A stretch of 64,000 nucleotides of DNA from Chloroflexota bacterium (GCA_029262675.1 JAJCYW010000009.1:47198-111197); one strand, 5' to 3'. Counted from the stretch's first letter, positions 13,806-59,498 are shown. Translations and numbers: made by a program. The notes: a model not told the origin generated them from the sequence alone.

Positions 13806-13967
13806 GCTCGATCCCGTCCTGGCCAGTCAAAGAAGCGTGAGTTGGCCGTTGACCAGTCGACCGGGCGAGGCGGCGTGGTGGCACCACGCTGGCCGATCGA
13901 TGACGTTGCGACTATGAACCTGATCGAGGGCCCAGCCGTGTCACAGACGCGCCCTACTGGACAATCG

Positions 13968-14586
13968 CGATCAGGCCGGCAATGTACTGGAGGATTAGGG
14001 CTGCGTCGATGGCGTCGACGCTGCTGTTCTGGTTCACGTCTGCAGCGTTCTGACAGGGCAACGAATCGATCAGCCCCGCGCCGAACTGCAGGAGCAGCGC
14101 TGCGTCGATGGCGTTGATCGCGCCGCTACAGTCAACGTCTCCGACCGAGCTGCCGGGCGGTGGTGCTTGGGTCGCTGTCGGTGGCGGCCGGTTGCTCGTC
14201 GTGCGTCACCGAGGATGACGCCGCCTCAAGCGAACCTCCCGGATCGAAGAGCGAGATATCGACGTTTCCCTCCTCGGCGCTGAATCGGGCGTCGACCTGG
14301 AGTTGCTCGTCCGCTGCTAGCCAGAGGGAGAACCAGTCATCGTCGCCAGGACAGGCCCACATGAAAAGCCCCGTGAACGGCACCCTATGGGCAACGCTGT
14401 CGTCCGCGAATCGTACCCCTCCAAGGAGTCGTCGACACAGGCTGCGGGGCCGGCGGGCTCTTGTCCTAGGGAAGGCATTGCGCCTCCAAGACCGAGGATC
14501 GAGCTAGAGGCAAGCCAGAGCGCGGCCACCGTGGCGATGCCGCCTCCAGCTAGCGACAGTGTCAGACGCCGAGTGATGGATCCCAA
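13968..14586 (-). pseudogene. frameshifted gene for a secreted protein: signal peptide, then a pre-peptidase-C-terminal (PPC)-like domain, then a dockerin-like Ca-binding module; the coding path needs two frame changes
   Basis: Three consecutive overlapping minus-strand reading frames. First: MGSITRRLTLSLAGGGIATVAALWLASS (signal). Second: ...DDDWFSLWLAADEQLQVDARFSAEEGNVDISLFDPGGSLEAAS (PPC-like). Third, with no start codon: ...GDVDCSGAINAIDAALLLQFGAGLIDSLPCQNAADVNQNSSVDAIDAALILQYIAGL, ending at the TAG near 13968. The third segment is homologous to the dockerin module inside 22325..26095. Confidence 0.45.
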
Positions 14587-14662: not shown

Positions 14663-16366
14663 TTGGCTATATTGATTGGTGGCTGCGGAGGCTCCAACGC
14701 CTCGGCCAAACGACCTTCAGAGCATAGATTCACTGCTTGCTTACCGAGGAGATCCAAATTGGCCGAGTACCTCTGGTGGAAACACGGCGTTATCTACCAG
14801 ATCTACCCCCGCAGTTTTCAGGACTCAAACGGTGACGGTATTGGCGATCTGAAGGGCGTGATCGATCGCCTTGATTACCTCAACGACGGTACGGAGCAGT
14901 CGCTCGGTATCGATGCGATCTGGTTCTCGCCAACGTATCCATCGCCGATGGCGGACTTTGGATACGACGTGTCCGACTACGAGGACGTGCATTCGGACTT
15001 CGGCGATCTGGCGACGATGGACCGATTGATCGAAGAAGCGCATAAGCGCAATATTCGGGTCATCCTTGACTTCGTCCCGAACCACACGTCGTCACTGCAC
15101 CCATGGTTTCTCGAATCGCGAACGTCAAGAGACTCGCCGAAACGCGACTGGTACGTATGGCGGGACGCGAAACCGGAAGGAAGCCCGCCCAACAACTGGA
15201 TCGCGGCGTTTGGCGGGCCGGCATGGGAATGGGACCAGAACACGCATCAATACTATCTGCATTCATTCCTCGTGGAGCAGCCCGATTTGAACTGGCGCAA
15301 CCCAGAAGTCGTCGCGCGGATGCACAACGTGCTTCGATTCTGGATGCGGCGCGGCGTCGACGGCTTTCGTATCGATGTGATGGACCGAGTCGTCAAAGAC
15401 CCGGAGCTGCGCGACAATCCACCACAGACCAATCCCCGGTACCGAGAAATGGCCCAGACCGCGCTCCAGATCCACCAGTACGATGTTAACTGGCCGGACA
15501 TCATCGACATCGTGCGCGGCATACGCAGCGTCGTGGATGAGTTCCCGGAGCGCATGACCGTTGGAGAAGTCTTCGGGCGGCCGAAACAAATCGTCGAGTA
15601 CTACGGTACGGACGGCCACGACGGACTCCACTTGGCGTTCAACTTTCCCTTCGTTCGCATTCGGGACAAACGTTGGACAGCGGAGCATGTGCGGAACGTT
15701 GTCGATGCCTTTGAGCAGGCGCTGACCCCAGGCGCCTGGCCGAACCACGTCTTTGGCAACCACGATGTAGACCGCTTGGTCAGCCGTGTGAATAACGACG
15801 GGCGGGGACAGGAGCGGGCGCGCCTTGCGGCGCTGTTGCTACTCACCGTGCGCGGCACGCCCTTCATCTACTATGGAGAAGAACTCGGCATGGAGAACGC
15901 GGTTATCCCGGAGGAGAAGCTCCAAGACCCGGCACGCATCTTCGCGCCCGGGCGCGATCCGGAGCGGACGCCGATGCCGTGGACCCGGAAGGGCGGTTTT
16001 ACAACGGGCGAGCCGTGGCTGCCGTACGGCGACCTGACGCAAAACGTCGCCGACCAAGCCGGCGATCCGCGTTCGCTGCTCACGCTCTATCGCCGCCTGC
16101 TCTGGTTCCGGCGTGCGTCTGATGCGCTGCGGGTTGGCGACTATACACCGGTCGACGTCGCGGCAGATGGTATCTTCGCCTACACGCGGACGACCGGAGA
16201 CGACCGTCTTCTTATGGTGCTCAACTTTACGACCGACATCGTTGACGTGGTTCTGCCGGAGGACTTGCGCGTGACAGCAACGGTCATCGGGACGCACGGC
16301 GAGCCGGCGGCAACGCAGAAGATGACGCTGGCTGGAAACGAAGGGCGCGTACTGCGCTTGGCGTAG
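14663..16366 (+). CDS. GH13 alpha-glucosidase / oligo-1,6-glucosidase-family (TreS-like) glycoside hydrolase
   Basis: WWKHGVIYQIYPRSFQDSNGDGIGDLKGVIDRLDYL...GIDAIWFSP...ILDFVPNHTS...DWYVWRD are GH13 conserved regions I-II. TTG start at 14663. Confidence 0.8.
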   Translation: MAILIGGCGGSNASAKRPSEHRFTACLPRRSKLAEYLWWKHGVIYQIYPRSFQDSNGDGIGDLKGVIDRLDYLNDGTEQSLGIDAIWFSPTYPSPMADFGYDVSDYEDVHSDFGDLATMDRLIEEAHKRNIRVILDFVPNHTSSLHPWFLESRTSRDSPKRDWYVWRDAKPEGSPPNNWIAAFGGPAWEWDQNTHQYYLHSFLVEQPDLNWRNPEVVARMHNVLRFWMRRGVDGFRIDVMDRVVKDPELRDNPPQTNPRYREMAQTALQIHQYDVNWPDIIDIVRGIRSVVDEFPERMTVGEVFGRPKQIVEYYGTDGHDGLHLAFNFPFVRIRDKRWTAEHVRNVVDAFEQALTPGAWPNHVFGNHDVDRLVSRVNNDGRGQERARLAALLLLTVRGTPFIYYGEELGMENAVIPEEKLQDPARIFAPGRDPERTPMPWTRKGGFTTGEPWLPYGDLTQNVADQAGDPRSLLTLYRRLLWFRRASDALRVGDYTPVDVAADGIFAYTRTTGDDRLLMVLNFTTDIVDVVLPEDLRVTATVIGTHGEPAATQKMTLAGNEGRVLRLA

Positions 16367-16520
16367 CTGCCACAAAGCCGTCGGGCGAGAGCCAGGCTTG
16401 CGCAGACCGCGCCGAGACGTCGCGCCGAATCTGGCGCGTCTCGTTCGGAAGGGAAATCGGTGGTTGGCTGCGAGGTCGCTGGTAACGCGGGGTCGTGGGA
16501 GGTCAAAACTCATCCATATC

Positions 16521-16582
16521 TGTGGGCTGCATTCGCAACTCCTTCGGCTGCGCTAAGGACAGGCTCTCTGCCTGGGAAGCAT
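16521..16582 (+). repeat. intergenic repeat family, copy B (degenerate at the tRNA-like end)
   Basis: GCAACTCCTTCGGCTGCGCTAAGGACAGGCTCTCTGCCTGGGAAGCA aligns with copies A and C. Lies between the GH13 stop and the glgA start. Confidence 0.45.
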
Positions 16583-16742
16583 CGGTTCGCGGTGCGCAAA
16601 GGTGGGGGAGAGTGCGGCTTGAGGCCGCTTGCGGGCGTGAAGTTCATGTGAACGTCCGGCTCCTCATGGTATGGTTCAGGCCTAGATCGTCGGGGCCGAC
16701 TGCCGCGGTCCAGCGTCTGGTCGGCCTAGCAGCGAATGAACG

Positions 16743-18200
16743 ATGACGTTGAGACCGCTTCGGATTCTATTCGCGGCTGCGGAAGCCTATCCCTTTGCCA
16801 AGGTTGGCGGCCTTGCCGATGTTGCTGCCTCCTTGCCGAAAGCGCTCACGGGACTAGGTCACGATGTCGTGACGGTCGTGCCCGGGTATCCGTCCGTCCC
16901 GAGAGCGCGGCTGGAGTTCAAATTGGAGATACCGATCGCCGAACGAGTCGAGGTCGCTACGGTCTATAGCTATGCGATTTGTGGCGGGCAGATGTTCACA
17001 GTCTCGAACGATGCCTACTTCGGGCGCGATCGGATCTATGGCTATGAAGACGATGACGAGCGCTTCATCTTCTTCTCGAAAGCAGTTGTCGGAATCGCGG
17101 CACGGACGGGCTTCGAGCCAGATATTCTGCATGGGCATGACTGGCACCTCGGGCTCGCGCCTCAGTACGCCCGCCAAGGACCACACCGCGATGCTCTCGC
17201 GGGAATGGGCATCGTCTTTACGATGCATAACGTTGCTTATCAAGGGCCGTATTCGGAGACCGCGGAGGACCTCATCGGGCTGCAGCAGGCATTCGACGGC
17301 AACCTTCCCTCGCGCGGTATCTCGTTCGCCGACAAGATCACGACCGTAAGTCCCTGTTACGCGAAGGAGATTCTTACGTCGGAACACGGACATGGTTTGG
17401 AAGAACGCCTGCGATCGCGAACCGCAGATCTCCATGGCATCCTTAACGGTATCGATAGCGATGAATTCAACCCCGAGACAGACGGCAATATCAGCGTGCC
17501 CTATAGCGCGCTGGACGTTTCTCAGAAGGCGCCGAACAAGCGCGCGCTCCAGGAGAGGGCTGGACTGACACTGGATTCGAGATCGCCGTTGCTTGCCATG
17601 GTCGCCCGGCTTGTCGATCAGAAAGGGTACGCGATCTTGCTCCGAGCGCTGGACAGAATCGTCGACCTCGGCGCCCAGGTCGTGGTTAACGGCATCGGCG
17701 AAGAGCGGTATGCTCAAGCGCTGGCTGAGGCGGTGGAGCGTCATCCCGGGCACGTCGCCCACCTAGCCACGGATGACGAGACTACGGCACGGCAGGTGTA
17801 CGCGGGCGCAGACCTGCTGCTGGCGCCATCGAACTTCGAGCCGTGCGGTCTCACACCGCTCATCGCCCTACGCTACGGTACGATACCTATTGTGAGACGG
17901 ACGGGTGGACTGGCAGATACAATTGTCGACTACCTGGAGGATCCTGCCGCGGGGATCGGATTCACGTTCATGAGGAAGTACGCAGGCCAGCTTGTGCGGG
18001 CGATAAACAATGGTATTGTCCTGTACAGGAACGTAGACGAGTGGCGGCGTCTGCAGAGGAGAGCCATGTCCGCGGATTTCTCTTGGAAGACATCGGCGTT
18101 GGAGTATGGGCGCCTGTACCGCAGTGCCATCACGGCGGCCTCAGGTGCGGGCCGCGACCGAATTCCGGAAGGCGATCTCCAACCGAGCCGGGGCGGCTAA
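16743..18200 (+). CDS. glgA: glycogen/starch synthase-family GT5 glycosyltransferase
   Basis: N-terminal KVGGLADV motif and C-terminal E..PCGLTPL..LRYGT motif, both characteristic of GT5. 485 aa. Confidence 0.85.
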   Translation: MTLRPLRILFAAAEAYPFAKVGGLADVAASLPKALTGLGHDVVTVVPGYPSVPRARLEFKLEIPIAERVEVATVYSYAICGGQMFTVSNDAYFGRDRIYGYEDDDERFIFFSKAVVGIAARTGFEPDILHGHDWHLGLAPQYARQGPHRDALAGMGIVFTMHNVAYQGPYSETAEDLIGLQQAFDGNLPSRGISFADKITTVSPCYAKEILTSEHGHGLEERLRSRTADLHGILNGIDSDEFNPETDGNISVPYSALDVSQKAPNKRALQERAGLTLDSRSPLLAMVARLVDQKGYAILLRALDRIVDLGAQVVVNGIGEERYAQALAEAVERHPGHVAHLATDDETTARQVYAGADLLLAPSNFEPCGLTPLIALRYGTIPIVRRTGGLADTIVDYLEDPAAGIGFTFMRKYAGQLVRAINNGIVLYRNVDEWRRLQRRAMSADFSWKTSALEYGRLYRSAITAASGAGRDRIPEGDLQPSRGG

Positions 18201-18738
18201 GGAGGATTACCGCAGATCGGACAACGCGCTGCGAAGCGGGTGCGGCGAGAGCCAGCGCGCTTCGATACGACGCCTCGTCTCCCACGGGACTCCCCCAATG
18301 TCACGACGATCTACATGTGCGTAACATTCCTTGCGCACTAGGCGATAGTACCTACGGAGATTGTCATCGCCCGCGTAACCGATATGGTAACGTTCACCCA
18401 TGCCTGGCATGTAGCCTGCCGGGCAGCCGTTTTGGGATGCTTTAACCACGGTTTAAGGACGCCTTAACCTTCTATCCGCTAGCATGACTGACAGTTGGAG
18501 CATTTCTCGCATCGACCCGCGGTAGGGTTCCCGCAGGCGCCAGGCAGCTCCCGGAGGAATACGGTAGGCGAGCACGTCAGGCGTTCCCCCTTTCAGCGAA
18601 CTTCCACATATTTCGGGTGGCCGTCGGGCAGGCCAAAAGAGGAGACAGGCAATCGGATTTAGGTGGGCTGTAGCGATCCTCATTCTTGCCGGCGTCGGTA
18701 TCGCGGGCGCCTCATTCGCGTTCTTCACGCTCCTCCAG

Positions 18739-20511
18739 GTGTCGGAGATGGTGATGCCGCGCGCACGCGATGTCGATCTAGGCACAACCGGCGCGCTTGT
18801 GACCGTCTATGGGACCAGTTCTGACGACAGGCTCGAGGGTATGGCGCTTGGCGACTTCAACGGCGACGGGAACCAGGACATTGTCGTAGCAGCACCCCGC
18901 GCGGACGGCCCTGACGATTCGCGGCGCGACGCGGGAGAAGTCTACGTCATCCTCGGCTCTGAAGCGCTCCCGACCGTTCATGACCTCGCCGAAGGTGCGC
19001 ACCAGACCGTGATTTTCGGAGCGGACCAGTTTGACAGGCTCGGCCGTTCGCTTGTCAGCGCTGATTTCAACGATGACGGTCTTGACGACTTCGCGCTCGG
19101 TGCCCGTGGCGATGGGCTGGCAAATGGGAAGGAAGATGTGGGCGAAGTATACATCTTCTTCGGCAAGCCTCGCATGCCCTCTTCCATCGACCTTGCCAGC
19201 CAGAGCCCGGACGTGTTGCTCATTGGCGCTGACCCGCAGGACGACTTTGGACAGTCGCTTGCCGTTGGCGAACTAGACGGCGACGGCATAGCCGACCTCG
19301 CTCTGGGAGCCGACAACGCAAACGGCGAAAACAATGAGCGCCAGGACGCTGGGGAAGTGCATGTCATGCTGGGCAGCCTGCGATTCCCCTCTCGCTTCGA
19401 CCTCGCCCAAGATTCGCTTGACGCCACGTTCATCGGCGCCGACATCGATGACGAATTCGGGTCCAACATCGCCATCGGCGACGTGAACGGCGATGGTAGC
19501 GATGACCTCGTGGTCTCTGCCGAAGACGCAAACGGACCTGAGAACGGCCGGGGCCAGGCGGGAGAAGCCTACGTCATCTTCGGTCCTGTCGAACCCAACA
19601 CCACAATCGACGTCTTGAATGTGGGCCCCGATGTGACCGTCTTTGGCGCGGACACCGATGACCGGCTGGGCGAAGCTCTGGCGGTGGGGGATGTGACCGG
19701 CGACGGCGTCGCAGACTTGGTCATCGGAGCGCCGAGGGCCGATGGCCCCAACAACGCCCGAAGCAGAGCTGGCGAAGCGTACCTCATTCGCGGTTCATCC
19801 AGCATGCCCTCAGCAATCGATCTGGCCGACGAGGGAAGCGCGCTCGTGATCTTGGGGACGGAGCGCGGCGATGACCTCGGCGGCGCCCTGGCCGCTGGAC
19901 TGGACCTAGACGGCGACGGCATCGGCGACCTACTAGTCGCGGCCGACAACGCCGCAGGTCCGGGCAACCGCCGCTTTAGAGCCGGGGAAGTTTATGTCAT
20001 CCTCGGCTCTAGCGAGTTTGAGCCGCTTCTTGAGCCGTTTATTGACACGGCGCGACGCGCTCAATCGTTCACGATCATCGGCGCGGATGATCACGACGAC
20101 CTGGGCTCGTTTGTCGGTGGAGGAGATTTTGATGGAGACGGTCAGGTCGATCTCCTGTTGGCGGCTCAAACGGGAAACGGACCTGAGGGACGGCGCACGT
20201 CGGCCGGCGAAGTCTACATACTCTCCGGCGGGGACATCGATAGGGATGGCGTGCTCGATATCACAGATAACTGCGTCGATGAGGGGAATCCCGAGCAAGA
20301 AGACGTCGATGGTGACGGTTTGGGTGACACGTGTGATTCATCGCCTACCGCGCAGTCGCGTTCGTCCTCGGCGCCGCGAGCGCTTGACGTAATGCACGTG
20401 GGACAGCTACTCTTGCCTGCATCTGTCCGCATTCGCTGCGGCCCAGAAGCACAATGTGGCGTCGCCGCGAGTGTCCGAGTAGGGCGGGGGAGCGGAGAGC
20501 GCCTGGCTTAA
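18739..20511 (+). CDS. FG-GAP (integrin-alpha-like beta-propeller) repeat protein with C-terminal thrombospondin type-3 Ca-binding repeats
   Basis: About 9 repeats of ...GD(F/V)NGDG..D(L/I)V(V/I)(S/G)A...A(D/N)GP...(G/A)GE(V/A)Y(V/I)(I/F)(L/F)G. C-terminal DRDGVLDITDNCVDEGNPEQEDVDGDGLGDTCD is TSP3-like. A hydrophobic segment lies in-frame upstream (see findings). Confidence 0.7.
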   Translation: MSEMVMPRARDVDLGTTGALVTVYGTSSDDRLEGMALGDFNGDGNQDIVVAAPRADGPDDSRRDAGEVYVILGSEALPTVHDLAEGAHQTVIFGADQFDRLGRSLVSADFNDDGLDDFALGARGDGLANGKEDVGEVYIFFGKPRMPSSIDLASQSPDVLLIGADPQDDFGQSLAVGELDGDGIADLALGADNANGENNERQDAGEVHVMLGSLRFPSRFDLAQDSLDATFIGADIDDEFGSNIAIGDVNGDGSDDLVVSAEDANGPENGRGQAGEAYVIFGPVEPNTTIDVLNVGPDVTVFGADTDDRLGEALAVGDVTGDGVADLVIGAPRADGPNNARSRAGEAYLIRGSSSMPSAIDLADEGSALVILGTERGDDLGGALAAGLDLDGDGIGDLLVAADNAAGPGNRRFRAGEVYVILGSSEFEPLLEPFIDTARRAQSFTIIGADDHDDLGSFVGGGDFDGDGQVDLLLAAQTGNGPEGRRTSAGEVYILSGGDIDRDGVLDITDNCVDEGNPEQEDVDGDGLGDTCDSSPTAQSRSSSAPRALDVMHVGQLLLPASVRIRCGPEAQCGVAASVRVGRGSGERLA

Positions 20512-22328
20512 TGTTCCGCCGTCTGCTGAGCTACTTAGTCCCTCAACGCTTCCTTATGGGTGGCGTCATTGGCACTATGCTCGCGAGCACTCTGGTCGCG
20601 ATGGCCGTGCCGTGGCCACTCAAGCTCATTGTCGACAACGTTCTCGGGCTACAGCCCCTCTTCGGACGCGAGATCGAGGGCACCGGCCAGCAGGTGCTAC
20701 TGGCGTTGGCCGCGTTCGGGTTCATTCTTCTCGCCGCGCTGAAAGGCTCGCTCACGGCTGTCCGAAGCCGCTGGGTGGCCCGCGTGAGCCAATCGGCGGG
20801 CCTCGAAATGCGACGCGACCTATACGCGCAGCTACAGAGGCTCTCCCTTCGCTTCCACGACACCAGCCGGACGGGCGATATTATCACCCGCATCACGACC
20901 GACGTGGACAGGCTTCAGAGCGCGTTCGTTTCCGGCCTCAGCCTATTCTCAGTAGACATGCTGACGGTCCTCGGAATCGCCGTCGTCATGTTCCTCGTAG
21001 ACTGGCAGTTCGCTCTCGTGGCGATGATCGTCCTGCCCAGCCTGCTCCTGATCTACACGAAATTCCGCGGCCGTGTGAAAGAAGCCGCGGTCGAGGCCCG
21101 GCAGAGCGAAGGCGGCATGGCGTCCGTCGCGCAAGAGATGCTCTCATCCATTCGAGTGGTGAAGGCGTTTGGACAGGAAGACCAGGAGCAGGAGCGATTC
21201 GACACGAAGACCAAGTCGAAAGCCGATGCGAGTGTTGAAGTTGCGACCTGGGAGGGGCTGTTCTCACTTTGGATCGAGCTGGCGACGGCAGCAGGTATCG
21301 CCGCCGTCCTCTGGTACGGGGGCTGGCGTGTGCTCGCGGGAAACCTGACGGTTGGGGAGATGATCCTGTTCAGCCAGTACCTGACCACACTCTATAGTCC
21401 GCTTCGACGTCTCAGCCGGCTGACGACCCTGGTGCAGCGCGCGAGCGCCAGCGCCGATCGTCTGAGCGAGATCTTCGACCTCGAAGCTGAGGTGCCAGAG
21501 GCCCCGGAGCCTGTGCATATCGAACGCGCGTCGGGCCGTCTGCAGCTAGAGCAGGTATCGTTCTCGTACTTCGGTGGCCAACCGGTGTTACAGGGCATCG
21601 ATCTCGATCTTGCGGCCGGCGAGACGCTCGCGCTCGTCGGCCCGACGGGTACCGGCAAGTCGACGCTCGTCAGCCTGATCCCCAGGTTCTACGATCCCGG
21701 AGAAGGCCGCATCCTCCTCGACGGCACCGACCTTCGACAGCTAGAGGTCAAAGCCTTACGCAGGCAAATCTCGTTTGTTCTGCAGGACACGGCTCTCTTT
21801 TCTGGCACGATCCGAGACAACATCGCCTACGGTCAGCCGGACGCCGGCGATGCCGCAATAATCGCTGTGGCGAAAGCCGCCAACGCCCACGCGTTCATCG
21901 AGGGCTTTCCTGATGGTTACGACGCTTCTGTTGGCGAGCGAGGCGTCACCCTCTCTGGCGGCCAGCGCCAGCGGATCGCGATCGCGCGTGCGCTCCTTCG
22001 CGACACGCCGATCCTGATCCTGGACGAGCCGACATCGGCCGTAGACAAGCAATCGGAGTCACTCATTCTCGAAGCCCTGTCGCGCTTGATCGAAGGCCGG
22101 ACAGTTGTGATCATCGCCCACCGGCTGGGGACGCTCGACCTCGTCGACCGCGTCGCGGTGCTGTTGGAGGGCAGGATTGCCTTTGCCGGCACGCCCAACG
22201 AGGCGATGCAGAAGCATCCAGACTTGCTGACGTCCCTGCAGGACTCTGGCAGATTAACCGCGCCGCAGGGTGCGGAGCGTGTGCCGCCGGTTACGGCGGC
22301 GAAGCCGAGAGGGAGAAGCCGTACGTGA
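20511..22328 (+). CDS. ABC exporter, fused permease + ATPase (MsbA-like)
   Basis: Six TM helices then an NBD with Walker A GPTGTGKST, signature LSGGQRQR and Walker B ILILDE. The start overlaps the upstream stop (TAATG). Confidence 0.85.
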   Translation: MFRRLLSYLVPQRFLMGGVIGTMLASTLVAMAVPWPLKLIVDNVLGLQPLFGREIEGTGQQVLLALAAFGFILLAALKGSLTAVRSRWVARVSQSAGLEMRRDLYAQLQRLSLRFHDTSRTGDIITRITTDVDRLQSAFVSGLSLFSVDMLTVLGIAVVMFLVDWQFALVAMIVLPSLLLIYTKFRGRVKEAAVEARQSEGGMASVAQEMLSSIRVVKAFGQEDQEQERFDTKTKSKADASVEVATWEGLFSLWIELATAAGIAAVLWYGGWRVLAGNLTVGEMILFSQYLTTLYSPLRRLSRLTTLVQRASASADRLSEIFDLEAEVPEAPEPVHIERASGRLQLEQVSFSYFGGQPVLQGIDLDLAAGETLALVGPTGTGKSTLVSLIPRFYDPGEGRILLDGTDLRQLEVKALRRQISFVLQDTALFSGTIRDNIAYGQPDAGDAAIIAVAKAANAHAFIEGFPDGYDASVGERGVTLSGGQRQRIAIARALLRDTPILILDEPTSAVDKQSESLILEALSRLIEGRTVVIIAHRLGTLDLVDRVAVLLEGRIAFAGTPNEAMQKHPDLLTSLQDSGRLTAPQGAERVPPVTAAKPRGRSRT

Positions 22329-25300
22329 GACACATCGCATTCGTTACCGCACTCATACTCGTTGCCGTCTTCGTACAGGTCACGCCTGCGCCCGCGGGAA
22401 CTCTTGTCGACATCGATCTCGCGATAGACACGCCCATCGCAAGAATCATCGGCCCCGGCTTCGCCGATCAGCTTAATGAGGTAGCGGTCGGCGACGTGAA
22501 CGACGACGGCATCGGCGATGTGATCATCGGCGCACCGAACGCGGACGTCAACGGTCCCCCTGTTCGCACGGACGCGGGAGAGGTGTACGTGGTGTTTGGC
22601 GGCGCGGGCGTTGCCGGAACGCTGGATCTCGACGCCGGCGCGGCGGACATCGTGATTCAGGGCGCAGAGGCATCGGATTCGCTCGGCCGTGCCGTCGCGA
22701 GCGGGGATGTGAACGCCGATGGCATCGATGACATCATCATCGCCGCGAAGGCGTCTGGCGACAGCAACGCGCGGCCGGCCGCCGGGGAAGTGTATATCAT
22801 CTTCGGCTCGACCTCTCTGAGCGGCACGAAAGACATTCTTGCCAACGACCAGGACGTACGAATCATCGGCGCTGATTCAGGCGATGACCTGGGGGCTGCG
22901 CTGGCAGTCGGTTTTCTCACCGGCGATGCGGACGGCGACCTCGTAATCGGCGCGGACAACGCGGATGGGCCGCCGGGCAGTTCGCGGCCTAACGCCGGCG
23001 AGGTCTACCTGATAGCGGGAACATCTGGGTTGCCCGCGATAATCGATCTCTCCGGCGGGCTGAGCAGCGCCAGCGCGATCGTGTACGGGGCTGAGGGCGG
23101 CGACGATGTTGGAACGGCTCTTGGGGTCGGCAACCTTAATGGTAGCGGCCCGGACGACTTAGCTATCGGCGCGGACGATGCGGAGGGTCCGGGGAACGCC
23201 CGCGCCGGCGCAGGCGAGGCGTACGGGCTGGCCGGGGAACTAGTCACGGGCGCCGTTGACCTCGCGGGGTCGGTCGCCAGGCTGACGATTCTGGGCGCGG
23301 AAGCAGGCGACAACCTGGGTACGGAGCTGGCGGTTGCTGACGTGAACAATGATGGCAAGGCCGATGTTGTCGTTTCGGCAGACACAGCCAACGGGCCAGG
23401 GAACGGGCGATTGGACGCGGGGGAGGCTTACGTCGTCTACGGCCGTTCGTCACTGAGCGAAACGGTAGATATCGCTTCGGATGAACAGGACGTGACCATC
23501 TTCGGCGCTGGCGTCCTCGATGGGCTCGGTGGCGCAGTCGCGGTCGGTGATACGACGGGCGATGGTGTGGCGGACATCGTGGTGTCGAATACCAATGGAA
23601 ACGGGCCACCAGGTGACTCCCGTCCAGGCGCTGGCGAAGCATACTTAATCGCCGGTTCCACAAACCTGCCGGCAAATCTGGACATAGCAACCTCCGCTTT
23701 ATTCATCACGATATATGGCGCGGGACCGCAGGACGATCTGGGGCGGGCCTTGGCCATCGGCAACGTAGCCGGGGGTAGTGGACAGGAGATCGTTGTCGCG
23801 GCATCGAAGGCGGACGGTGACCCGGATCCCCCAACCAAATGTCTAGACAACTGTCGAGCAAACGCGGGAGAGGTCTACGTCATCGGCCTTCCGGGCGCCG
23901 ATGCCACCGCAACGCCAACATCGACCTCGGCGTCGACGTCGACGCCGATGCCAACCACAACGCCGGGGTCGACTCCGGTTGTTACCGCGACGGATACGCC
24001 AGCGGCCACGGCCACAGTTCCGGCCACGCCGGGGGTCACGGCTACGCCGCCTGCTTCGTCGACACCGGCCGCGACATCTACGGCACCAGCGATTGCGACG
24101 CCGACGAATACACTGGAACCAACCCCGACGGCAACAGCGACGTCTGCGCCGAAGGTCTACGGCGACGCGAACTGCGACAGCACCGTGAACGCCGTCGACT
24201 CGGCGTTCATCCTGCAGTTACAGGCCGGTCTGATAAGCTCGCTGCCCTGCGAGGATGAGGCGGACGTCAACCGCGACGGCCTCCTCAATCCCATAGATTC
24301 CACGCTTATTCTGCAGTTCAGCGCGGGGCTGCTCAACAACCTGGGTCCTTCCGGCGCTTCAGCCACGTCTGAGGTCGCGCAGGCCGCGGGCGTGGCGCGC
24401 GCGCCGCTGGCACAGGACTCCCTCACGATCGATCTGGCGTCAGCGAGCCCGGCAGCGCGGGTGATCGGTGCAGCTATCGGCGACCAGCTGAATGAACTTG
24501 CGCTGGGCGACATGAATGGAGACGGCGTTCGCGACATCCTGATCGGCGCGCCTCGAGCGAACGGACCGGACGCGCGCCCGAACGCTGGCGCAGCCTTTGT
24601 TGTGTTCAGAGGCGCGGGCCTTCCGGCGACACGGGACCTCGCTGGATCTCCGCCGGATGTCACGATCTATGGAAGCGATGCGTTCGACGGGTTGGGCCGG
24701 TCGGTGGCGAGCGGTGACGTAAACGGCGACGGCGTCGACGACATCATCGTCGGGTCGCTCGGTTCCGGCGAGGGCAACGGACGCCCGGCGGCGGGTGAAG
24801 TCCACATCATCTTCGGCTCCAGCTCGCTGGGCGGGACGATAGACACGGCGAACGGGGGAGAAGACGTCCGCATCATCGGCGCGGACGTTGCCGACGACGC
24901 CGGCACGGCGCTGGCGGTGGCTGACATGAATGGCGATGGTGTCGCCGATCTGCTGATCGGAGCGGATGACGCGGCGGGGCCGGGGAACGCCCGGCCGAAT
25001 GCCGGCGAGATATATCTGATCTTGGGCAGGGCATCGTTGGGAGGAATCGTCGACCTGGCGGCCGGCGGCCCAAGCGCGACGGTGTACGGAGCGGAGTCGG
25101 GCGATGACATCGGCACGGCGCTGGCGGTAGGTGATATCGACGGTGACGGGCGTCTCGACCTGGTAATCGGTGCGGACGACGCGGCGGGGCCGGGGAACGC
25201 CCGCCCAGATGGGGGCGAGGTACACGTACTGTCCGGCACCGCGTTGAGCGGCACGGTCGACCTTGCCAGCAGCGTCAGGCGGCTGACGATCCTCGGCGCG

Positions 25301-26095
25301 GAGCCGACGGACAACTTCGGAACAAGGGTCGCGATCGGTGACGTGAACAACGATGGCTTGGTTGATGTGGTCGCATCGGCAGACATCGCCAGCGGCCCGG
25401 AGAATTCGCGGGGTGAGGCCGGCGAGGCATACGTCGTGTTCGGCCGGGCCTCGTTGAGCGGGACGGTCGACATCGCCGACGGTGGACAGGACGTGACGAT
25501 CCTGGGCGCGGATCTCATCGACAGGCTCGGCGGCGCGCTGGCAGTGGGGGACGTCACGGGCGACGGCGTCGCGGACATCGTGATAAGCAGCGACGACGGG
25601 GACGGGCCCACGAACGAGCGTTTCAACGCCGGCGAAGTGTACGTGATCGCCGGATCACCCGGCTTGTCGGGAACTGTGGACATCCTCACAGGCGGGCAGG
25701 GACTGACGATCTTCGGCGCCGACGTTGGCGATGATCTTGGACGCTCGATGACGGTAGGTAATGTGCTGGGCGACGGCGTACTGGAGATCGTCGTGTCGGC
25801 CTCCAAGGCGGACGGAGAAGCGAACGCCCGCAGCGAAGCTGGCGAAGTCTACGTCATCAATCTGGGAGGCGAAGCTGGACCTGGTGACGCACCCAACGGA
25901 AACGCTAACCATAGCCCTGGCGGACAGACCGCCGCCCCGGGATCAATCTATGCCAGCCTCGGCTCCGGCCCGAGCGCGGGATCTGGAAACGCCGGGCTAC
26001 CCTGGACAACGCTGATCGCGTTGTTAACTATGGGCGGCATCCTGCTGGGAGCGGGAGCTGCCGCACAGATACGCCTACGGGCCGGACATCGTTAG
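22325..26095 (+). CDS. giant (1256 aa) surface protein: signal peptide, ~9 FG-GAP blades, Thr/Pro linker, dockerin-like module, ~9 FG-GAP blades, C-terminal TM anchor
   Basis: N-terminal MRHIAFVTALILVAVFVQVTPAPA (signal). Repeated GDVN(A/D)DG...AGEVY motifs. Linker TPTSTSASTSTPMPTTTPGSTP.... Central module YGDANCDSTVNAVDSAFILQLQAGLISSLPCEDEADVNRDGLLNPIDSTLILQFSAGLL is a dockerin-type duplicated EF-hand. C-terminal LPWTTLIALLTMGGILLGAGAAAQIRLRAGHR. GTGA start/stop overlap with the ABC gene. Confidence 0.75.
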   Translation: MRHIAFVTALILVAVFVQVTPAPAGTLVDIDLAIDTPIARIIGPGFADQLNEVAVGDVNDDGIGDVIIGAPNADVNGPPVRTDAGEVYVVFGGAGVAGTLDLDAGAADIVIQGAEASDSLGRAVASGDVNADGIDDIIIAAKASGDSNARPAAGEVYIIFGSTSLSGTKDILANDQDVRIIGADSGDDLGAALAVGFLTGDADGDLVIGADNADGPPGSSRPNAGEVYLIAGTSGLPAIIDLSGGLSSASAIVYGAEGGDDVGTALGVGNLNGSGPDDLAIGADDAEGPGNARAGAGEAYGLAGELVTGAVDLAGSVARLTILGAEAGDNLGTELAVADVNNDGKADVVVSADTANGPGNGRLDAGEAYVVYGRSSLSETVDIASDEQDVTIFGAGVLDGLGGAVAVGDTTGDGVADIVVSNTNGNGPPGDSRPGAGEAYLIAGSTNLPANLDIATSALFITIYGAGPQDDLGRALAIGNVAGGSGQEIVVAASKADGDPDPPTKCLDNCRANAGEVYVIGLPGADATATPTSTSASTSTPMPTTTPGSTPVVTATDTPAATATVPATPGVTATPPASSTPAATSTAPAIATPTNTLEPTPTATATSAPKVYGDANCDSTVNAVDSAFILQLQAGLISSLPCEDEADVNRDGLLNPIDSTLILQFSAGLLNNLGPSGASATSEVAQAAGVARAPLAQDSLTIDLASASPAARVIGAAIGDQLNELALGDMNGDGVRDILIGAPRANGPDARPNAGAAFVVFRGAGLPATRDLAGSPPDVTIYGSDAFDGLGRSVASGDVNGDGVDDIIVGSLGSGEGNGRPAAGEVHIIFGSSSLGGTIDTANGGEDVRIIGADVADDAGTALAVADMNGDGVADLLIGADDAAGPGNARPNAGEIYLILGRASLGGIVDLAAGGPSATVYGAESGDDIGTALAVGDIDGDGRLDLVIGADDAAGPGNARPDGGEVHVLSGTALSGTVDLASSVRRLTILGAEPTDNFGTRVAIGDVNNDGLVDVVASADIASGPENSRGEAGEAYVVFGRASLSGTVDIADGGQDVTILGADLIDRLGGALAVGDVTGDGVADIVISSDDGDGPTNERFNAGEVYVIAGSPGLSGTVDILTGGQGLTIFGADVGDDLGRSMTVGNVLGDGVLEIVVSASKADGEANARSEAGEVYVINLGGEAGPGDAPNGNANHSPGGQTAAPGSIYASLGSGPSAGSGNAGLPWTTLIALLTMGGILLGAGAAAQIRLRAGHR

Positions 26096-26149
26096 GAGAA
26101 TGAGCATGCCATCGAACGTCAGTAGCACTATGGAGGACAGGTACTAGTC

Positions 26150-27172
26150 ATGGCGAAGAATCCGCTGTTCTTTCTCGTTGGATGCTCGCGATCCGGAACG
26201 ACACTGGTTCAACACATGATGGACGCGCATGAGCAACTGGCGGTTGTCCCGGAGACGCGCTGGTTCGTTCATTGGTTCGACAAGCGCTACGGCATATCGG
26301 AAGACGGATTCGTTACTCCCGATCTGGTTCCCAGGTTGCTTCAGCGGCATCGCCTGTTCAGAGATGCGGACATCGGCGTGACGCAGCAGCAACTGGAACA
26401 CTTGGTTTCGGATGGCGGGAAAATGCGGTATCAGGATTTCGTTTCAATCCTCTTCGATCGCTATGCCGAGGCACGCGGCGTCGCGCACGCGGGAAACAAG
26501 ACTCCCGGATATGTGCGCAGCCTGCAAACCATCCACTTACTGTGGCCGGCCGCCAAGCTTATCCACGTCATTCGCGACGGGCGCGAGGTGAGTCTCTCCA
26601 TCATCCAGAAGCGGACGATGAGAAACCGGCCGGGCAAGCCGGGTGGCCGCTTCGCGACATGGCAAGAAGACGCGGTGACGACGTCGGCGCTCTGGTGGGA
26701 GTGGAACGTCAGGCTCGGCCAGGAAGCCGGCAGAGCCATCGGCCCCGGCCACTACTACGAGCTTCGCTACGACGCGCTCGTCGCGCGCCCTGAGGCCGAG
26801 AGCAGAGCCCTGTGCGATTTCCTAGGTGTGCCGTTCGACGATGCGATGCTCCGCCATCATGAGGGGCGCGTGAAAGCGGATCCCCGCCTGGTCGAGAAGC
26901 ACACAGGGCTAGATAAGCCCGTGACCGCCGGGATGCGAAACTGGAACACAGAGATGCCGCGCGACGATATCGAACGATTCGAAGCCTCGGCCGGCGGTCT
27001 CTTGGAAGAACTCGGCTACGAGTTCGGCGTTCAGAACCATTCGCCGGAGAGTCTAGCGCACGCGGCGCGACTTCGAGGGCTGTTCATGGGACGGCCCTTG
27101 CCAGAAAACTGGCGCGCCTGGAATGGCACGCGCGGTTCAGTAGAGGCGCATGCAGACCACGTGGGAAACTGA
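26150..27172 (+). CDS. sulfotransferase-family protein (Stf0 / Sulfotransfer_3-like)
   Basis: N-terminal 5'-PSB loop FFLVGCSRSGTTL, plus ...HVIRDGREV and ...YYELRYDALV motifs typical of the family. Confidence 0.65.
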   Translation: MAKNPLFFLVGCSRSGTTLVQHMMDAHEQLAVVPETRWFVHWFDKRYGISEDGFVTPDLVPRLLQRHRLFRDADIGVTQQQLEHLVSDGGKMRYQDFVSILFDRYAEARGVAHAGNKTPGYVRSLQTIHLLWPAAKLIHVIRDGREVSLSIIQKRTMRNRPGKPGGRFATWQEDAVTTSALWWEWNVRLGQEAGRAIGPGHYYELRYDALVARPEAESRALCDFLGVPFDDAMLRHHEGRVKADPRLVEKHTGLDKPVTAGMRNWNTEMPRDDIERFEASAGGLLEELGYEFGVQNHSPESLAHAARLRGLFMGRPLPENWRAWNGTRGSVEAHADHVGN

Positions 27173-27287
27173 CGAGATCGGACGGCCAGCGGTCGTTCAA
27201 CTGCAAACAGGCGCGAGAGAACGGAATGGCACGGGATGCCCGTGGAATCAGGCCAAGGACGGCCGGACTGATGAACGGAGGAGAGAC

Positions 27288-29351
27288 ATGGTGCATTTGA
27301 AAGTCCGACCCAGGAATACGATCCTCTTGGCCGCCGCCGTCGCTCTCGGCCTCGTCGTGGTGTGGGGCATAAGCATCATTTACGCAACTCTCACCACGCC
27401 CACCATGGATCTTAAGTCGACGACAGCGGACGTCACGATCCTGGGAGCGACAGGCGGATTACCTCAAGGCGACGCCATCGGCAGGCGTCTTGCGGCGGGA
27501 GATTTCAACGGCGACACGATAGCCGATGTTCTCATCGGCGCGCCAAACGCGGACGGGCCGGGTAATGCTCGCCTCGACTCGGGGGAGGCCTACGTCGTCT
27601 TTGGGCGGAGCGTCGGATCGCCGATCACGGTCGACATCAATAGCGGCGGCCAGGACGTCACGATTGTCGGCGCCGCCACGGGGAACCGCCTTGGCACGGC
27701 CGTCGCAGCCGGAGACGTCAACGGTGATACGTTCGACGACGTCATCATCGGCGCATCGGAGGCCGCCAACGGAGCGCTGTTGAGCGCCGGCGCGGTCTAT
27801 GTATTCTACGGTTCGGCAGCGATTTCCGGCACCAAGGACATCTCCAGCGTCGCGCCGGACGTGACGATCAAGGGCGGCAGCGCCCTGGATAAGCTCGGCC
27901 AAGCGCTCGCCGCGGGCGACATCGACAACGATGGCGATGACGACATCATCATCGGCGCACCACGGTCGCCCGCCGGCGGCCGGGCAGAAGCCGGCCAGGT
28001 CTACGGCATCTTCGGCTCCGGTTCGCTGCCCGCGACGCTCACGACCGGCGCCCTGGGAACGGCCGGATTCTCAATCATCGGCGCGAGTTCAGGCGACACG
28101 CTTGGATCCGACGTCGCCGTGGGGCGGGTGGACAGCGACAGCAACGCGGACATCCTCATCGGCGCGGAAAACGCGCTAGATGCCATCGGGGTCATGAGCG
28201 GTGAAGCCTATCTTGTGCTGGGCTCCCCGGCGCCCGGCAGCTCGATCGATCTGGCTGTCGGAGGCTGGGCTCTGAAAGTCGTCGGCGCTGATGAGGTAGA
28301 CGAGTTGGGTTCCCGTGTGGTTATCGGCGATGTCAACAACGACGGCTTCGGCGACATGATCATCGCGGCACCGAACGCTGCCGGCCCCGGCAACGTCAGG
28401 AACGCGGGCGGGTTCGGCGCGGGCGAGGCTTACGTCGTCTATGGCGCCGCGACCGTGTCCGGCACGGTCAACATCGTGCCCGGCGGGGGGAGCATCACGA
28501 CCATCTATGCCGCCGAAGCCGAGGATGAGATGAGTCGAGTCGGTGCGGCGGACGTGGATGGCGATACCATCGCTGACATTGTGTTCAGCTCCGACGACGG
28601 AGACGGCGCCGGTAACAGCCGGACCGACGCCGGCGAAGCATTCGTGTCCTACAGTTCCTCCACGCTTCCGGCGGCTGGTACTGTGATCGACGTCGCTGGC
28701 ACAGTGCCGGGCTCGGTCACGCCTGCGCTTACCGTCTTCGCCGCGGAGGCGCTTGATGACCTTGGCGCCGGGTATCTCGTTGCCGACTTCGACGGAGACA
28801 ACGGCGGCGACCTGGTGATCGGCGCGCCGGGCGCGGACGGGCCTTCGAACGGTCGCCCTAACGCAGGCGAGGTCTACGTGCTGCTGGGAGCGGCCGGTAC
28901 GCCACCGGGGCCGACGGCGACGCCTACGATCACGCCGACGCCGTGCCCAGGGGGCAAGGTGCCAGCTAGCGGTGGTGGGTGCGGCACGCCCACGCCGACG
29001 CCTCCCAAGCTCCCGTTCCCCGCCGACACCGACGGCGACGGTTGCGCCGACGTGAACGAGAGCTTACCTAAGGCCCAGTCATCTAATGGCGGGGGCCGTG
29101 ACTGGCTGAACCCCTGGGACTACTACAACGTCAACGGTGACGGCGTCATCGATTTGTTGAACGACATCCTCGGCGTAATCCAGCACTATCAGCCAACGCC
29201 AGGAGGAGCTGCGCCGTACGGCGCAGCATTCGACCGCGGGCCGACTACAGGGCCTCACCCGTGGAACATGACGGCGCCAGACGGTGTCATCGACCTGCTG
29301 AACGACGTTTTGGGAGTAATACTGCAGTACAACCCGACGGGCTGCACATAG
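27288..29351 (+). CDS. FG-GAP repeat protein with an N-terminal signal-anchor and C-terminal dockerin-like Ca-binding repeats
   Basis: Start at ATG 27288 with a GGAGGAGAGA RBS. TM segment ILLAAAVALGLVVVWGISIIY. Repeated GDVNGD...AGE(A/V)YV(V/F)(F/Y)G blades. C-terminal NVNGDGVIDLLNDILGVIQHY ... APDGVIDLLNDVLGVILQY pair. Confidence 0.7.
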   Translation: MVHLKVRPRNTILLAAAVALGLVVVWGISIIYATLTTPTMDLKSTTADVTILGATGGLPQGDAIGRRLAAGDFNGDTIADVLIGAPNADGPGNARLDSGEAYVVFGRSVGSPITVDINSGGQDVTIVGAATGNRLGTAVAAGDVNGDTFDDVIIGASEAANGALLSAGAVYVFYGSAAISGTKDISSVAPDVTIKGGSALDKLGQALAAGDIDNDGDDDIIIGAPRSPAGGRAEAGQVYGIFGSGSLPATLTTGALGTAGFSIIGASSGDTLGSDVAVGRVDSDSNADILIGAENALDAIGVMSGEAYLVLGSPAPGSSIDLAVGGWALKVVGADEVDELGSRVVIGDVNNDGFGDMIIAAPNAAGPGNVRNAGGFGAGEAYVVYGAATVSGTVNIVPGGGSITTIYAAEAEDEMSRVGAADVDGDTIADIVFSSDDGDGAGNSRTDAGEAFVSYSSSTLPAAGTVIDVAGTVPGSVTPALTVFAAEALDDLGAGYLVADFDGDNGGDLVIGAPGADGPSNGRPNAGEVYVLLGAAGTPPGPTATPTITPTPCPGGKVPASGGGCGTPTPTPPKLPFPADTDGDGCADVNESLPKAQSSNGGGRDWLNPWDYYNVNGDGVIDLLNDILGVIQHYQPTPGGAAPYGAAFDRGPTTGPHPWNMTAPDGVIDLLNDVLGVILQYNPTGCT

Positions 29352-29358
29352 CCAAGCT

Positions 29359-30366
29359 ATGATGACCATTCCGACTGACAGCTCCGAGATCGTCGACCTG
29401 TTGCGCGAGCGCGTTCCCGAATTTGCCTCCGGCGCACTGCGAATCGAGTCGTGCGAACCGCGGTGGGTCAGGAAGAAGATGCGCAAGCACCTTGCGGAGT
29501 TCGAGGTTCGATTTCTTGGCCAGGGTGGCAGCCGTCAATCAATCTCAATCATCGCGAAGCAGTACCCAAAAGACAGAGGAGGCCACGCCTATCTCGCGAT
29601 GTGCTGGCTGCACGCGCAAGGCTTCTGGCCAGAGGCGTCGTTGAGCGTCTCGAGGGCGCTATTCTACGATCCGCAGCGATTCCTGCTCTTGCAAGGGAAG
29701 GCAGAAGGGGTGGAGGTGGCGTCGGCCCTGCAGGATGGCGAATCGACTCTGCGCCGTCGTTCGCAACAGGCGGCGCATTGGCTGGCGATGCTACACCAAA
29801 GCGATGGGGGCGGGTTCAAGCGTTCGCGTGCCAGTGCCGTGCGTTCGATTCACTCGCGGTTGAGGCGGCTCGCGAAGGAGTATCCTGACATCCAACCTCG
29901 TCTCGATCGCTTCGGCGAAGAGCTCGTGCAGCGGCTGCGGGACTCCCGGGAGTGCCCCTCCGTACCGACTCACGGCGACTACCATCCGAAGAACATCTTT
30001 GCCCAAGATGACCAGGTGACGGTCATTGACCTCGATCACTTCGGCTTGCGCGAGGCGGCCGCCGACGTTGGGTATTTCCTCGGTCAGATGGCGATTATGG
30101 CGTACCTGAAGCTCGGATCGTTCTCCGCTGCCCTGCCTGCAGTCGATAGCTTCCTGGAAGCGTACCACGACCGCGCAGACCTTCCTGTGCCCTGGGATCG
30201 CACGGCAACTCATGTCAGCCGTACCTTCGTCCAGAGCCTTCACTATGAACTCTGCGTCCTCCGCAACGGGCGGACGGACCTCATCGAAGGGTGGCTCCAC
30301 CAAGCAGAGCAATGGCTCCAATGTGAGAGCCCGGACGGAATCGAAGAGTTACTCGGCAAGTCGTGA
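29359..30366 (+). CDS. protein-kinase-like phosphotransferase (APH/CotS/maltokinase-like family)
   Basis: Brenner catalytic motif HGDYHPKN and metal-binding IDLDHFG. About 335 aa. The start lies 8 nt after the upstream stop. Confidence 0.6.
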   Translation: MMTIPTDSSEIVDLLRERVPEFASGALRIESCEPRWVRKKMRKHLAEFEVRFLGQGGSRQSISIIAKQYPKDRGGHAYLAMCWLHAQGFWPEASLSVSRALFYDPQRFLLLQGKAEGVEVASALQDGESTLRRRSQQAAHWLAMLHQSDGGGFKRSRASAVRSIHSRLRRLAKEYPDIQPRLDRFGEELVQRLRDSRECPSVPTHGDYHPKNIFAQDDQVTVIDLDHFGLREAAADVGYFLGQMAIMAYLKLGSFSAALPAVDSFLEAYHDRADLPVPWDRTATHVSRTFVQSLHYELCVLRNGRTDLIEGWLHQAEQWLQCESPDGIEELLGKS

Positions 30367-41393: not shown

Positions 41394-41463
41394 CACAGTG
41401 GCAGAACAGCCAGTCTATCAGGCCCGCGCAGCGCACGGCCCCGGCCGTCGCCGGGCAAGTCGC

Positions 41464-52697: not shown

Positions 52698-53168
52698 ATG
52701 GCCGAGATCTACACCACCGCCTGGTACGACAGCATGAAGGATCTCCTCAACAAGAGCGATGAGGTCACGAAGAACGCACCGCAGGGTGTCTGGCGCATCC
52801 TGGCGGAGATTCGCGGCGATGGCACATCACCCTACATCGGCGGCGATGATGTCAAACGCTTCTCGATAGTGCTCGACGATGGCAAATGCGCGAGCTACCA
52901 GGAGCTGACAGAGGCGCCGCCGCGGAAGGACTTCGAATTCATCCTGGAGATGCCCGCCGGCCTCTTCGAGCGTATCGTCGCCAACCAGGCAGATCCGCTT
53001 GAGGCCGGGCTAAAGGGTGACGTGAAGATCGTCGGCGACATGCGGGTGCTGATCCAGAACGCGGAGCTAGTGAACGTCCTCTCTGAGATCTACCAGCGCG
53101 AGATCGAAACGGAGTGGCCTAACGGTACCCCTCCGTACGAGGCAGCGACTGCTGGAGGTGCGGCATGA
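52698..53168 (+). CDS. SCP2-domain protein
   Basis: AAGGAG RBS. ...FSIVLDDGKCASYQELTE...FEFILEMPAGLFERIVANQADPLEAGLKGDVKIVGDMRVLIQNAELVNVL is an SCP2 fold signature. Confidence 0.55.
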   Translation: MAEIYTTAWYDSMKDLLNKSDEVTKNAPQGVWRILAEIRGDGTSPYIGGDDVKRFSIVLDDGKCASYQELTEAPPRKDFEFILEMPAGLFERIVANQADPLEAGLKGDVKIVGDMRVLIQNAELVNVLSEIYQREIETEWPNGTPPYEAATAGGAA

Positions 53169-55945: not shown

Positions 55946-55961
55946 GAAGCGAGGTGCAGTC

Positions 55962-56612: not shown

Positions 56613-56630
56613 CGGAAAGTAGGGCTCGCC

Positions 56631-59481: not shown

Positions 59482-59498
59482 GCGAATGGAGGGACACC

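Follow-up and report, generated by a model that had tools for sequence, protein, structure and literature searches.

What role could a dockerin play between the two β-propellers of a bacterial protein that appears to be held in the membrane? This question is raised by a 64,000-nucleotide stretch of DNA from a Chloroflexota bacterium (GCA_029262675.1, JAJCYW010000009.1:47198-111197), the whole of which was analyzed and is referred to here as the window. In this window, the open reading frame (ORF) at 22325..26095 on the plus strand encodes a protein of 1256 amino acids (aa). An initial annotation, made from the sequence, had described this protein as two FG-GAP propellers separated by a Thr/Pro linker and an internal dockerin-like module and followed by a C-terminal transmembrane (TM) anchor, and it had suggested a cohesin–dockerin-like or calcium-dependent assembly system on the cell surface. 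Based on profile and sequence searches and structure prediction, the central module was identified as a true type I dockerin. The protein as a whole is predicted to be a large calcium-binding surface protein, the parts of which are all common and only the arrangement of which is unusual. Its domains follow one another in the order signal peptide, FG-GAP propeller, Thr/Pro/Ala linker, dockerin, short linker, second propeller, Gly/Ser/Pro linker, TM helix, and basic tail, with the boundaries and evidence as follows.

22325..22399, plus strand: GTG start and Sec-type signal peptide (aa 1-25, MRHIAFVTALILVAVFVQVTPAPAG), from hydropathy and a Shine-Dalgarno (SD)-like site
22400..23929, plus strand: propeller 1, seven FG-GAP repeats of ~70 aa (aa 26-535), from Pfam, motif spacing, and DNA repeats
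23930..24157, plus strand: Thr/Pro/Ala-rich linker of 76 aa (aa 536-611), from composition
24158..24340, plus strand: type I dockerin of 61 aa (aa 612-672) with two calcium loops and Cys617/Cys642, from Pfam, phmmer against the Protein Data Bank (PDB), AlphaFold2 (AF2), and Foldseek
24341..24409, plus strand: short Ala/Ser/Gly linker (aa 673-695), from comparison with family members and the pLDDT of the model
24410..25903, plus strand: propeller 2, seven FG-GAP repeats (aa 696-1193), a duplicate of propeller 1, from identity in register
25904..26002, plus strand: Gly/Ser/Pro/Ala/Asn-rich stalk (aa 1194-1226), read from the sequence
26003..26095, plus strand: TM helix (aa 1227-1249), basic tail RLRAGHR, and stop codon, from hydropathy

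Identification of the Central Module as a Type I Dockerin

When the 68-aa module was scanned alone, Pfam Dockerin_1 (PF00404; gathering threshold, 22.9 bits) matched at 28.5 bits (E = 1.8e-6) over profile positions 1-52 of 57. The module contains two 12-residue loops of the dockerin type, loop 1 (DANCDSTVNAVD, aa 614-625, nt 24164-24199) and loop 2 (DVNRDGLLNPID, aa 647-658, nt 24263-24298), each of which carries Asp or Asn at positions 1, 3, 5, 9, and 12 and is followed by a predicted helix (residues 24-34 and 57-67 of the model, respectively). In a phmmer search of the PDB with the module, the matches were all dockerin modules or dockerin-bearing enzymes, the best of which was the dockerin of Clostridium thermocellum Cel9D in entry 4fl4 (E = 3e-5). 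The AF2 model of the module, which was calculated from a 50-sequence alignment, consists of a helix, a short helix, and a helix, with a mean pLDDT of 86 and values of 95-98 in the core. In a Foldseek search of the PDB with this model, the top 33 matches were all dockerins, with target-normalised TM-scores of 0.8-0.86 and a root-mean-square deviation (rmsd) of 1.0-1.6 Å over ~65 residues. The domain searches on which the initial annotation had let its duplicated calcium-binding segment (aa 612-672) stand or fall support a dockerin, as do the model and the structural matches, and the position of the segment in the middle of the polypeptide was confirmed.

The protein possesses only four cysteines (positions 506, 510, 617, and 642), the latter two of which lie inside the central module and probably form a Cys617-Cys642 disulfide. 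By analogy, both dockerin loops, together with the loops of the propeller blades, would bind calcium. The Ala/Ser/Gly linker that follows (aa 673-695; pLDDT 50-54) stands where the family members usually end with a ...SLPP C-terminus. The preceding linker is rich in Thr, Pro, and Ala, as had been annotated (T22, P15, A15, and S5 per 72 residues, aa 541-612), and a Thr/Pro linker of like type precedes the same dockerin subtype in relatives.

A Cys-Pair Dockerin Subtype of Chloroflexota

No matches to the isolated 73-aa module were obtained in a word-indexed search, and an exhaustive search was needed; a family profile was built from the two dockerin modules of the window and run with HMMER against cluster representatives. 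This search retrieved 10,877 representatives of a Cys-pair dockerin subtype at E ≤ 1e-3, including 2,039 at E ≤ 1e-10. The subtype consensus is GDVNCDGxVNAIDAALILQ..AGLIxSLPC...ADVNxDGxVNAIDAALILQ..AGLIxSLPP, and both cysteines, one at position 4 of loop 1 and the other in the ...LPC linker, are invariant across a 32-module alignment. The central module is 44-64 % identical to other members of the subtype, and Pfam Dockerin_1 matches these relatives at 40-87 bits. The three relatives with a named source all come from "Chloroflexi bacterium", two under the name "dockerin type I repeat-containing protein".

Among the best 149 of the 10,877 representatives, the module is located at the extreme C-terminus in 114 (77 %), typically behind a Thr/Pro linker, just after the signal peptide in 17, and internally in 16. 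The Cys pair is present in 118 of these 149, and a C-terminal TM helix occurs downstream of the dockerin in three. The modules are joined to varied domains, such as RCC1-like repeats, P-domain-like modules, and FG-GAP propellers. The subtype is very large, mostly C-terminal, non-cellulosomal, and typical of Chloroflexota.

Proteins that combine FG-GAP repeats with a dockerin are already present in the databases (P0160, P0105, and P0049). P0160 (641 aa), composed of a signal peptide, an FG-GAP propeller, a TP linker, and a C-terminal dockerin, corresponds to the first half of the 1256-aa protein. Approximately three dozen of the 120 whole-protein FG-GAP relatives carry a weaker dockerin-like module behind the propeller, and in this comparison blades on both sides of the dockerin were seen in the 1256-aa protein only. 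The protein is a sequence-cluster singleton, the next best relative of which is 35 % identical, and a scan of genome contigs gave distant FG-GAP loci only, the best in an Acidobacteria metagenome-assembled genome (MAG; 32 %) and a Dehalococcoidia MAG (40 %). The combination of propeller, dockerin, propeller, and TM helix is unique to this singleton; its components are ordinary, and the internal position and the TM anchor each have precedent.

A further group of relatives (P0004, P0006, P0020, P0023, P0045, and ~30 more), some of which are labelled Bipolaricaulota, possesses an FG-GAP propeller, PKD, and an internal dockerin-like module (KGDVDLDGDVDIIDA...NIDVTDVRWIAEY). In some members of this group, a cohesin-like domain and a sorting-type domain at the C-terminus are present in addition, so that dockerin and cohesin would share one polypeptide.

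Duplicated FG-GAP Propellers

Pfam FG-GAP matched the 1256-aa protein at 227 bits (E = 7e-69), FG-GAP_3 also matched, and repeats are present to either side of the central region, in agreement with the initial annotation. The ~9 blades per side that it had counted are to be replaced by 7 + 7 repeats. AGE[VAI][YHF] motifs recur in propeller 1 at aa 84, 153, 224, 296, 365, 436, and 514, with a spacing of 69-78 aa, and in propeller 2 at aa 823, 893, 1032, 1102, and 1172 and, in degenerate form, near 754 and 963; the DNA repeats of the propeller regions have a period of 207-219 nt, which is consistent with ~70-aa repeats. Each propeller is predicted from this series to be seven-bladed and integrin-alpha-like. 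The strict calcium-loop motif D-x-[DN]-x-D-G-x-x-D is found in 10 of the 14 blades, and the closest solved sequences identified by phmmer against the PDB are the calcium-binding blades 4-7 of integrin alpha-5, alpha-IIb, and alpha-V (E = 2e-8). The TSP_3 family was not detected in the 1256-aa protein by Pfam, and the only match in the window, in the gene at 18739, is sub-threshold.

The nature of the blades bears on whether the protein could be a dockerin-tagged, cellulosome-like carbohydrate-active enzyme, with catalytic propellers as in some β-propeller polysaccharide lyases. Such an enzyme would fit with the glycogen/starch genes nearby (alpha-amylase, glycogen synthase, and GH57) and with the internal dockerins between two catalytic modules that are known in cellulosomal enzymes (PMC12484212). 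However, Pfam and NCBIfam detected only FG-GAP and the dockerin, with no carbohydrate-active enzyme domain or other catalytic family; the closest solved sequences are integrin blades and not lyases, the nearby sugar genes belong to intracellular glycogen metabolism, and no scaffoldin is present in the window. An enzymatic role of this kind is considered extremely unlikely.

Aligned in register over 495 aa, propellers 1 and 2 share 58.6 % identity, whereas each shares only 36-43 % with the propellers encoded by two paralogous genes of the window. The DNA copies of propellers 1 and 2 are offset by 2001-2007 nt (~2004) and are 67-69 % identical, and no DNA tandem repeat was found in the Thr/Pro/Ala linker. 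Because of this divergence, offset, and linker, propeller 2 is regarded as an old internal duplication, and assembly collapse as the source of the two halves was rejected. Propeller 2 begins exactly at the point equivalent to the start of mature propeller 1 (TLVDIDLAIDTPIARIIG vs SLTIDLASASPAARVIG) and lacks a signal peptide of its own. Most likely, the protein descends from an ancestor with a signal peptide, a propeller, a TP linker, and a C-terminal dockerin, an architecture that is still seen in P0160. This ancestor would have lost its stop codon and gained a duplicate of its own propeller together with a membrane anchor.

The internal position of the dockerin would be unreal if two adjacent paralogues, one comprising a signal peptide, propeller, linker, and dockerin and the other a propeller and TM helix, had been joined by mis-assembly or an indel in a metagenome-assembled contig. 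Several observations favor such an artefactual fusion: the protein is a singleton on one contig only; among the 120 FG-GAP relatives, no other protein has a dockerin with blades to either side; in family members, the polypeptide normally stops within a few residues of the module; and the reading frame of another gene in the window is disrupted. On the other hand, the reading frame of the 1256-aa protein is continuous over 3.8 kb with no internal stop, the second half has neither a signal peptide nor a start-like N-terminus and sets in precisely at the mature-propeller start point, the halves are too diverged in DNA for assembly collapse, and the linker is free of tandem DNA repeats; the fusion is judged very unlikely. 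The ORF itself, as initially annotated, was confirmed. Its GTG start is credible because an SD-like AGGGAG (22310-22315) precedes it and because it overlaps the stop codon of the upstream ABC exporter gene (GTGA), an arrangement that suggests co-transcription with this gene.

Predicted Signal Peptide and Membrane Anchor

Hydropathy exceeds 1.8 across aa 1-28, and the signal-peptide-like segment (aa 1-25) ends with TPAPAG; the cleavage site was placed by inference, without a prediction tool. At the opposite end, hydropathy is 1.6-1.9 over aa 1223-1249, and a hydrophobic helix (aa ~1227-1249) is followed by RLRAGHR, so that the hydropathy and the basic tail agree with the C-terminal TM anchor of the initial annotation. 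A sortase-type anchor, which was considered on account of an LPWTT sequence, was rejected: the NCBIfam sorting-signal models (LPXTG, PEP-CTERM, PGF-CTERM, and others) gave no match to the last 43-75 residues even at E ≤ 10, and the motif is not LPXTG and runs straight into the helix. The C-terminus is therefore treated as a plain transmembrane anchor. No sortase was found in the window by Pfam among all ORFs of at least 200 aa. A separate gene of the window (41290-44322, plus strand) encodes an NHL-repeat protein of 1010 aa that includes a plastocyanin-like copper domain. The C-terminus of this protein consists of LPETG, a spacer, a hydrophobic stretch, and RRRGASRKRPY; this end is sortase-signal-like but sub-threshold (9.8 vs 15.9 bits).

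Proposed Function and Cohesin Partners

With moderate confidence, the 1256-aa protein is proposed to be a membrane-held surface protein that docks partners in a calcium-dependent manner through its dockerin and uses its propellers as ligand or adhesion surfaces. The protein would be exported by the Sec pathway and held in the cytoplasmic membrane by its single C-terminal helix in a type I topology, with the basic tail on the cytoplasmic side. On the outside, the two FG-GAP propellers would be displayed with the extended Thr/Pro linker and the dockerin between them. The propellers may serve as ligand or adhesion surfaces, and the dockerin could plug, in the presence of calcium, into a cohesin-type module carried by a different protein that is secreted or exposed on the surface. 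In the classical cellulosome, the anchored partner carries the cohesins. Since here the dockerin-bearing protein is itself membrane-anchored, the partner protein would be tethered to the cell with the opposite polarity.

Cohesin modules occur together with this dockerin subtype in proteins from elsewhere. The cohesin region of P0140, which carries the same dockerin subtype, scores 26.4 bits on Pfam Cohesin (PF00963; gathering threshold, 24.1 bits), P0172 scores 22.9 bits, and a cohesin-like profile matched 10 of the 149 best subtype representatives. In the PDB, this profile gave only three weak matches (E = 0.035-0.45), all to cohesin-side chains of cohesin–dockerin complex entries, one of which is labelled cohesin. 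Because subtype-bearing proteins contain such modules, a cohesin–dockerin system with this subtype exists in related organisms, and the assembly system that had been suggested at the outset is a plausible proposal for the source organism.

Several points weigh against calcium-dependent docking by a surface-anchored dockerin. No cohesin was found in the window, either by Pfam among all ORFs of at least 200 aa or by a six-frame scan with the cohesin-like profile (0 matches); the six-frame scan with our own profiles revealed exactly two dockerins and one flexitail domain. Inside the full-length protein, Dockerin_1 (aa 612-662) reaches only 20.8 bits, just below the threshold of 22.9 bits, and position 6 of loop 1 is Ser in place of the nearly invariant Gly (CDS vs CDG). 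The signal peptide and TM helix were assigned from hydropathy alone. No orthologue with the same architecture was found, and selection on the domain arrangement of this singleton therefore cannot be shown. Moreover, Peer et al. in 2009 are said to have noted many organisms with non-cellulosomal dockerins but without recognisable cohesins.

The lack of a cohesin in the window favors an orphan dockerin, a true dockerin by descent that has no cohesin partner here and may serve between the propellers as a rigid spacer or hinge stabilised by calcium, or may bind a glycan, an S-layer component, or its own copy. This explanation, which is possible if somewhat doubtful, is in line with the low share of top representatives that carry a cohesin-like domain (only ~10 of 149), with the loss of the terminal position by the module in the 1256-aa protein, and with the wide occurrence of non-cellulosomal dockerins, which, according to an Omnitrophota paper (citing Peer et al. 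2009), have been suggested to serve simply as adhesins. However, the calcium-ligand positions, the Cys pair, and the helix surfaces of the module match the family consensus, and from this conservation a maintained family-typical function can be argued; in addition, it is exactly this subtype with which cohesin modules co-occur in other proteins.

If the dockerin of the proposed surface protein recruits cohesin partners, the abundant dockerins of Chloroflexota (>10,000 sequence clusters) would be seen to be used in cell-surface assemblies unrelated to cellulose degradation, and a natural case of a membrane-anchored protein presenting a dockerin instead of a cohesin would be provided. A wider view, in which Chloroflexota run a widespread non-cellulolytic cohesin–dockerin network of reversed polarity, with dockerins displayed by membrane-anchored proteins like this one to capture secreted proteins that bear cohesins, and the three propeller paralogues with calcium-type tails constitute a combinatorial, calcium-switched surface-assembly or cell–cell adhesion system, is speculative and unlikely. 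For the present, the protein is chiefly an example of how domains are shuffled and duplicated, in an ordinary way, among bacterial calcium-binding surface proteins.

Genomic Context

Two further features of the window were compared with the central dockerin.

14157..13963, minus strand: second Cys-pair dockerin, at the end of a frame-disrupted small secreted-protein gene (~14586..13957), from Pfam (39.7 bits)
29019..29348, plus strand: flexitail domain, at the C-terminus of the FG-GAP gene 27288..29351, from NCBIfam NF041520

The dockerin that the initial annotation had placed in a frameshifted gene (13968-14586) is indeed the same module as the central one, with 39.7 bits on Pfam Dockerin_1 and 111 bits on our family profile in the six-frame scan. 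The gene contains two frame changes: the signal peptide is followed by a PPC-like middle part in another frame (14383..14135), and the TP linker and dockerin are back in the first frame. It represents either a pseudogene or the result of assembly indels.

The dockerin-like VIDLLNDILGVI pair that had been claimed for the 27288 gene belongs to a flexitail domain instead. NCBIfam NF041520 matched the 27288..29351 protein at 124.3 bits (E = 3.3e-36; aa 626-729; cut-off, 40 bits). In this tail, Pfam gave no Dockerin_1 match at E ≤ 10, no dockerin was among the phmmer matches in the PDB, and our dockerin profile found none; hhalign assigned a probability of 2 % to the relation between the flexitail and dockerin profiles, with the NVNGDG loop alone aligned. 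The AF2 model of the tail, calculated from a 3-sequence alignment, has a pLDDT of 37 and is too poor to decide the fold. An iterative jackhmmer search that linked flexitail to dockerins was discarded as unreliable, since it had drifted via shared DxNxDG loops. The flexitail domain may be a distant F-hand relative. Flexitail-like tails were also found on further FG-GAP proteins (P0087 and P0034), and a literature search found no paper on flexitail in the sense of this domain. To our knowledge, neither the Cys-pair dockerin subtype nor the flexitail domain has been experimentally characterised.

The surface-protein genes lie in an operon-like run (18739-32342, plus strand) that encodes, in order, an FG-GAP/TSP3-like protein, an ABC exporter, the FG-GAP/dockerin protein, a sulfotransferase, the FG-GAP/flexitail protein, an APH-type kinase, and GH57. 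The three paralogous propeller genes of this run each possess a different calcium-type tail (TSP3-like, dockerin, or flexitail). The first of them (18600-20511, plus strand) encodes a 590-aa FG-GAP protein with a TSP3-like tail; an in-frame TM-like segment (FRWAVAILILAGVGIAGASFAFFTLL) lies upstream with no canonical start codon ahead of it, and a GTG start at 18739 would leave this protein without a signal peptide. Glycogen/starch genes (GH13 alpha-amylase family, glycogen synthase, and GH57; 14663-18200 and 30363-32342, plus strand) are located around the surface-protein cluster, and a functional link is not evident. Further downstream (53165-62330, plus strand), genes for an ethylbenzene-dehydrogenase-like haem subunit, a 4Fe-4S protein, a NarJ-like chaperone, and a MobB/FmdE fusion are flanked by two genes for paralogous molybdopterin oxidoreductases (926 and 943 aa).

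Comparison with Known Systems

The central module resembles the cellulosomal type I dockerins (PF00404), such as those of C. thermocellum Cel9D/CelD (4fl4/1clc) and CelS (1daq), in its duplicated 22-residue segment, in which a D-x-N-x-D-G-x-x-N-x-x-D calcium loop precedes a helix, and in its predicted three-helix fold (rmsd 1.0-1.6 Å, 23-34 % identity). In contrast to those dockerins, it is attached to no carbohydrate-active enzyme and has no scaffoldin in view, and it carries a conserved Cys pair and lies between two propellers of a membrane-anchored protein.

Dockerins are usually C-terminal, and N-terminal cases and internal cases between two modules are documented in PMC12484212. The same source describes C. 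thermocellum XynZ (Grepinet et al. 1988, via PMC12484212), in which a dockerin likewise lies between two large modules of one polypeptide. In XynZ-type enzymes, the modules that flank the dockerin are enzymes, and the proteins are secreted and recruited to a scaffoldin; in the 1256-aa protein, which is itself membrane-anchored, the dockerin is flanked by two copies of a non-catalytic propeller.

Each propeller is similar to the integrin alpha propeller (PF01839) in its seven ~60-70-aa FG-GAP repeats and calcium-binding D-x-D-x-D-G loops, and a type I membrane topology with a C-terminal TM helix and a short cytoplasmic tail would be shared as well. The similarity is limited to the repeat (E ~ 1e-8): unlike integrin alpha, the protein is bacterial, possesses two tandem propellers, lacks thigh and calf domains and a beta subunit, and has calcium loops in nearly all blades.

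The proteins of Bipolaricaulota and other organisms that combine FG-GAP, PKD, dockerin-like, and cohesin-like domains (P0004, P0006, P0023, and P0045) share with the 1256-aa protein an internal dockerin-like module behind a propeller. They differ in that their module is of a weaker dockerin-like subtype (8-15 bits on our own profile), the domains that follow it are not propellers, and only one propeller is present.

Dockerins outside cellulosomes have long been known and were reportedly the subject of a general survey by Peer et al. in 2009. Among these, the non-cellulosomal dockerin proteins of Chloroflexota are closest to the 1256-aa protein in that they possess the same module subtype behind the same kind of Thr/Pro linker and, in the case of P0160, the same order of propeller, linker, and dockerin. 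In contrast to the best relatives of this subtype, 77 % of which carry the module at the extreme C-terminus, the module here is internal, with a second propeller and a TM anchor behind it.

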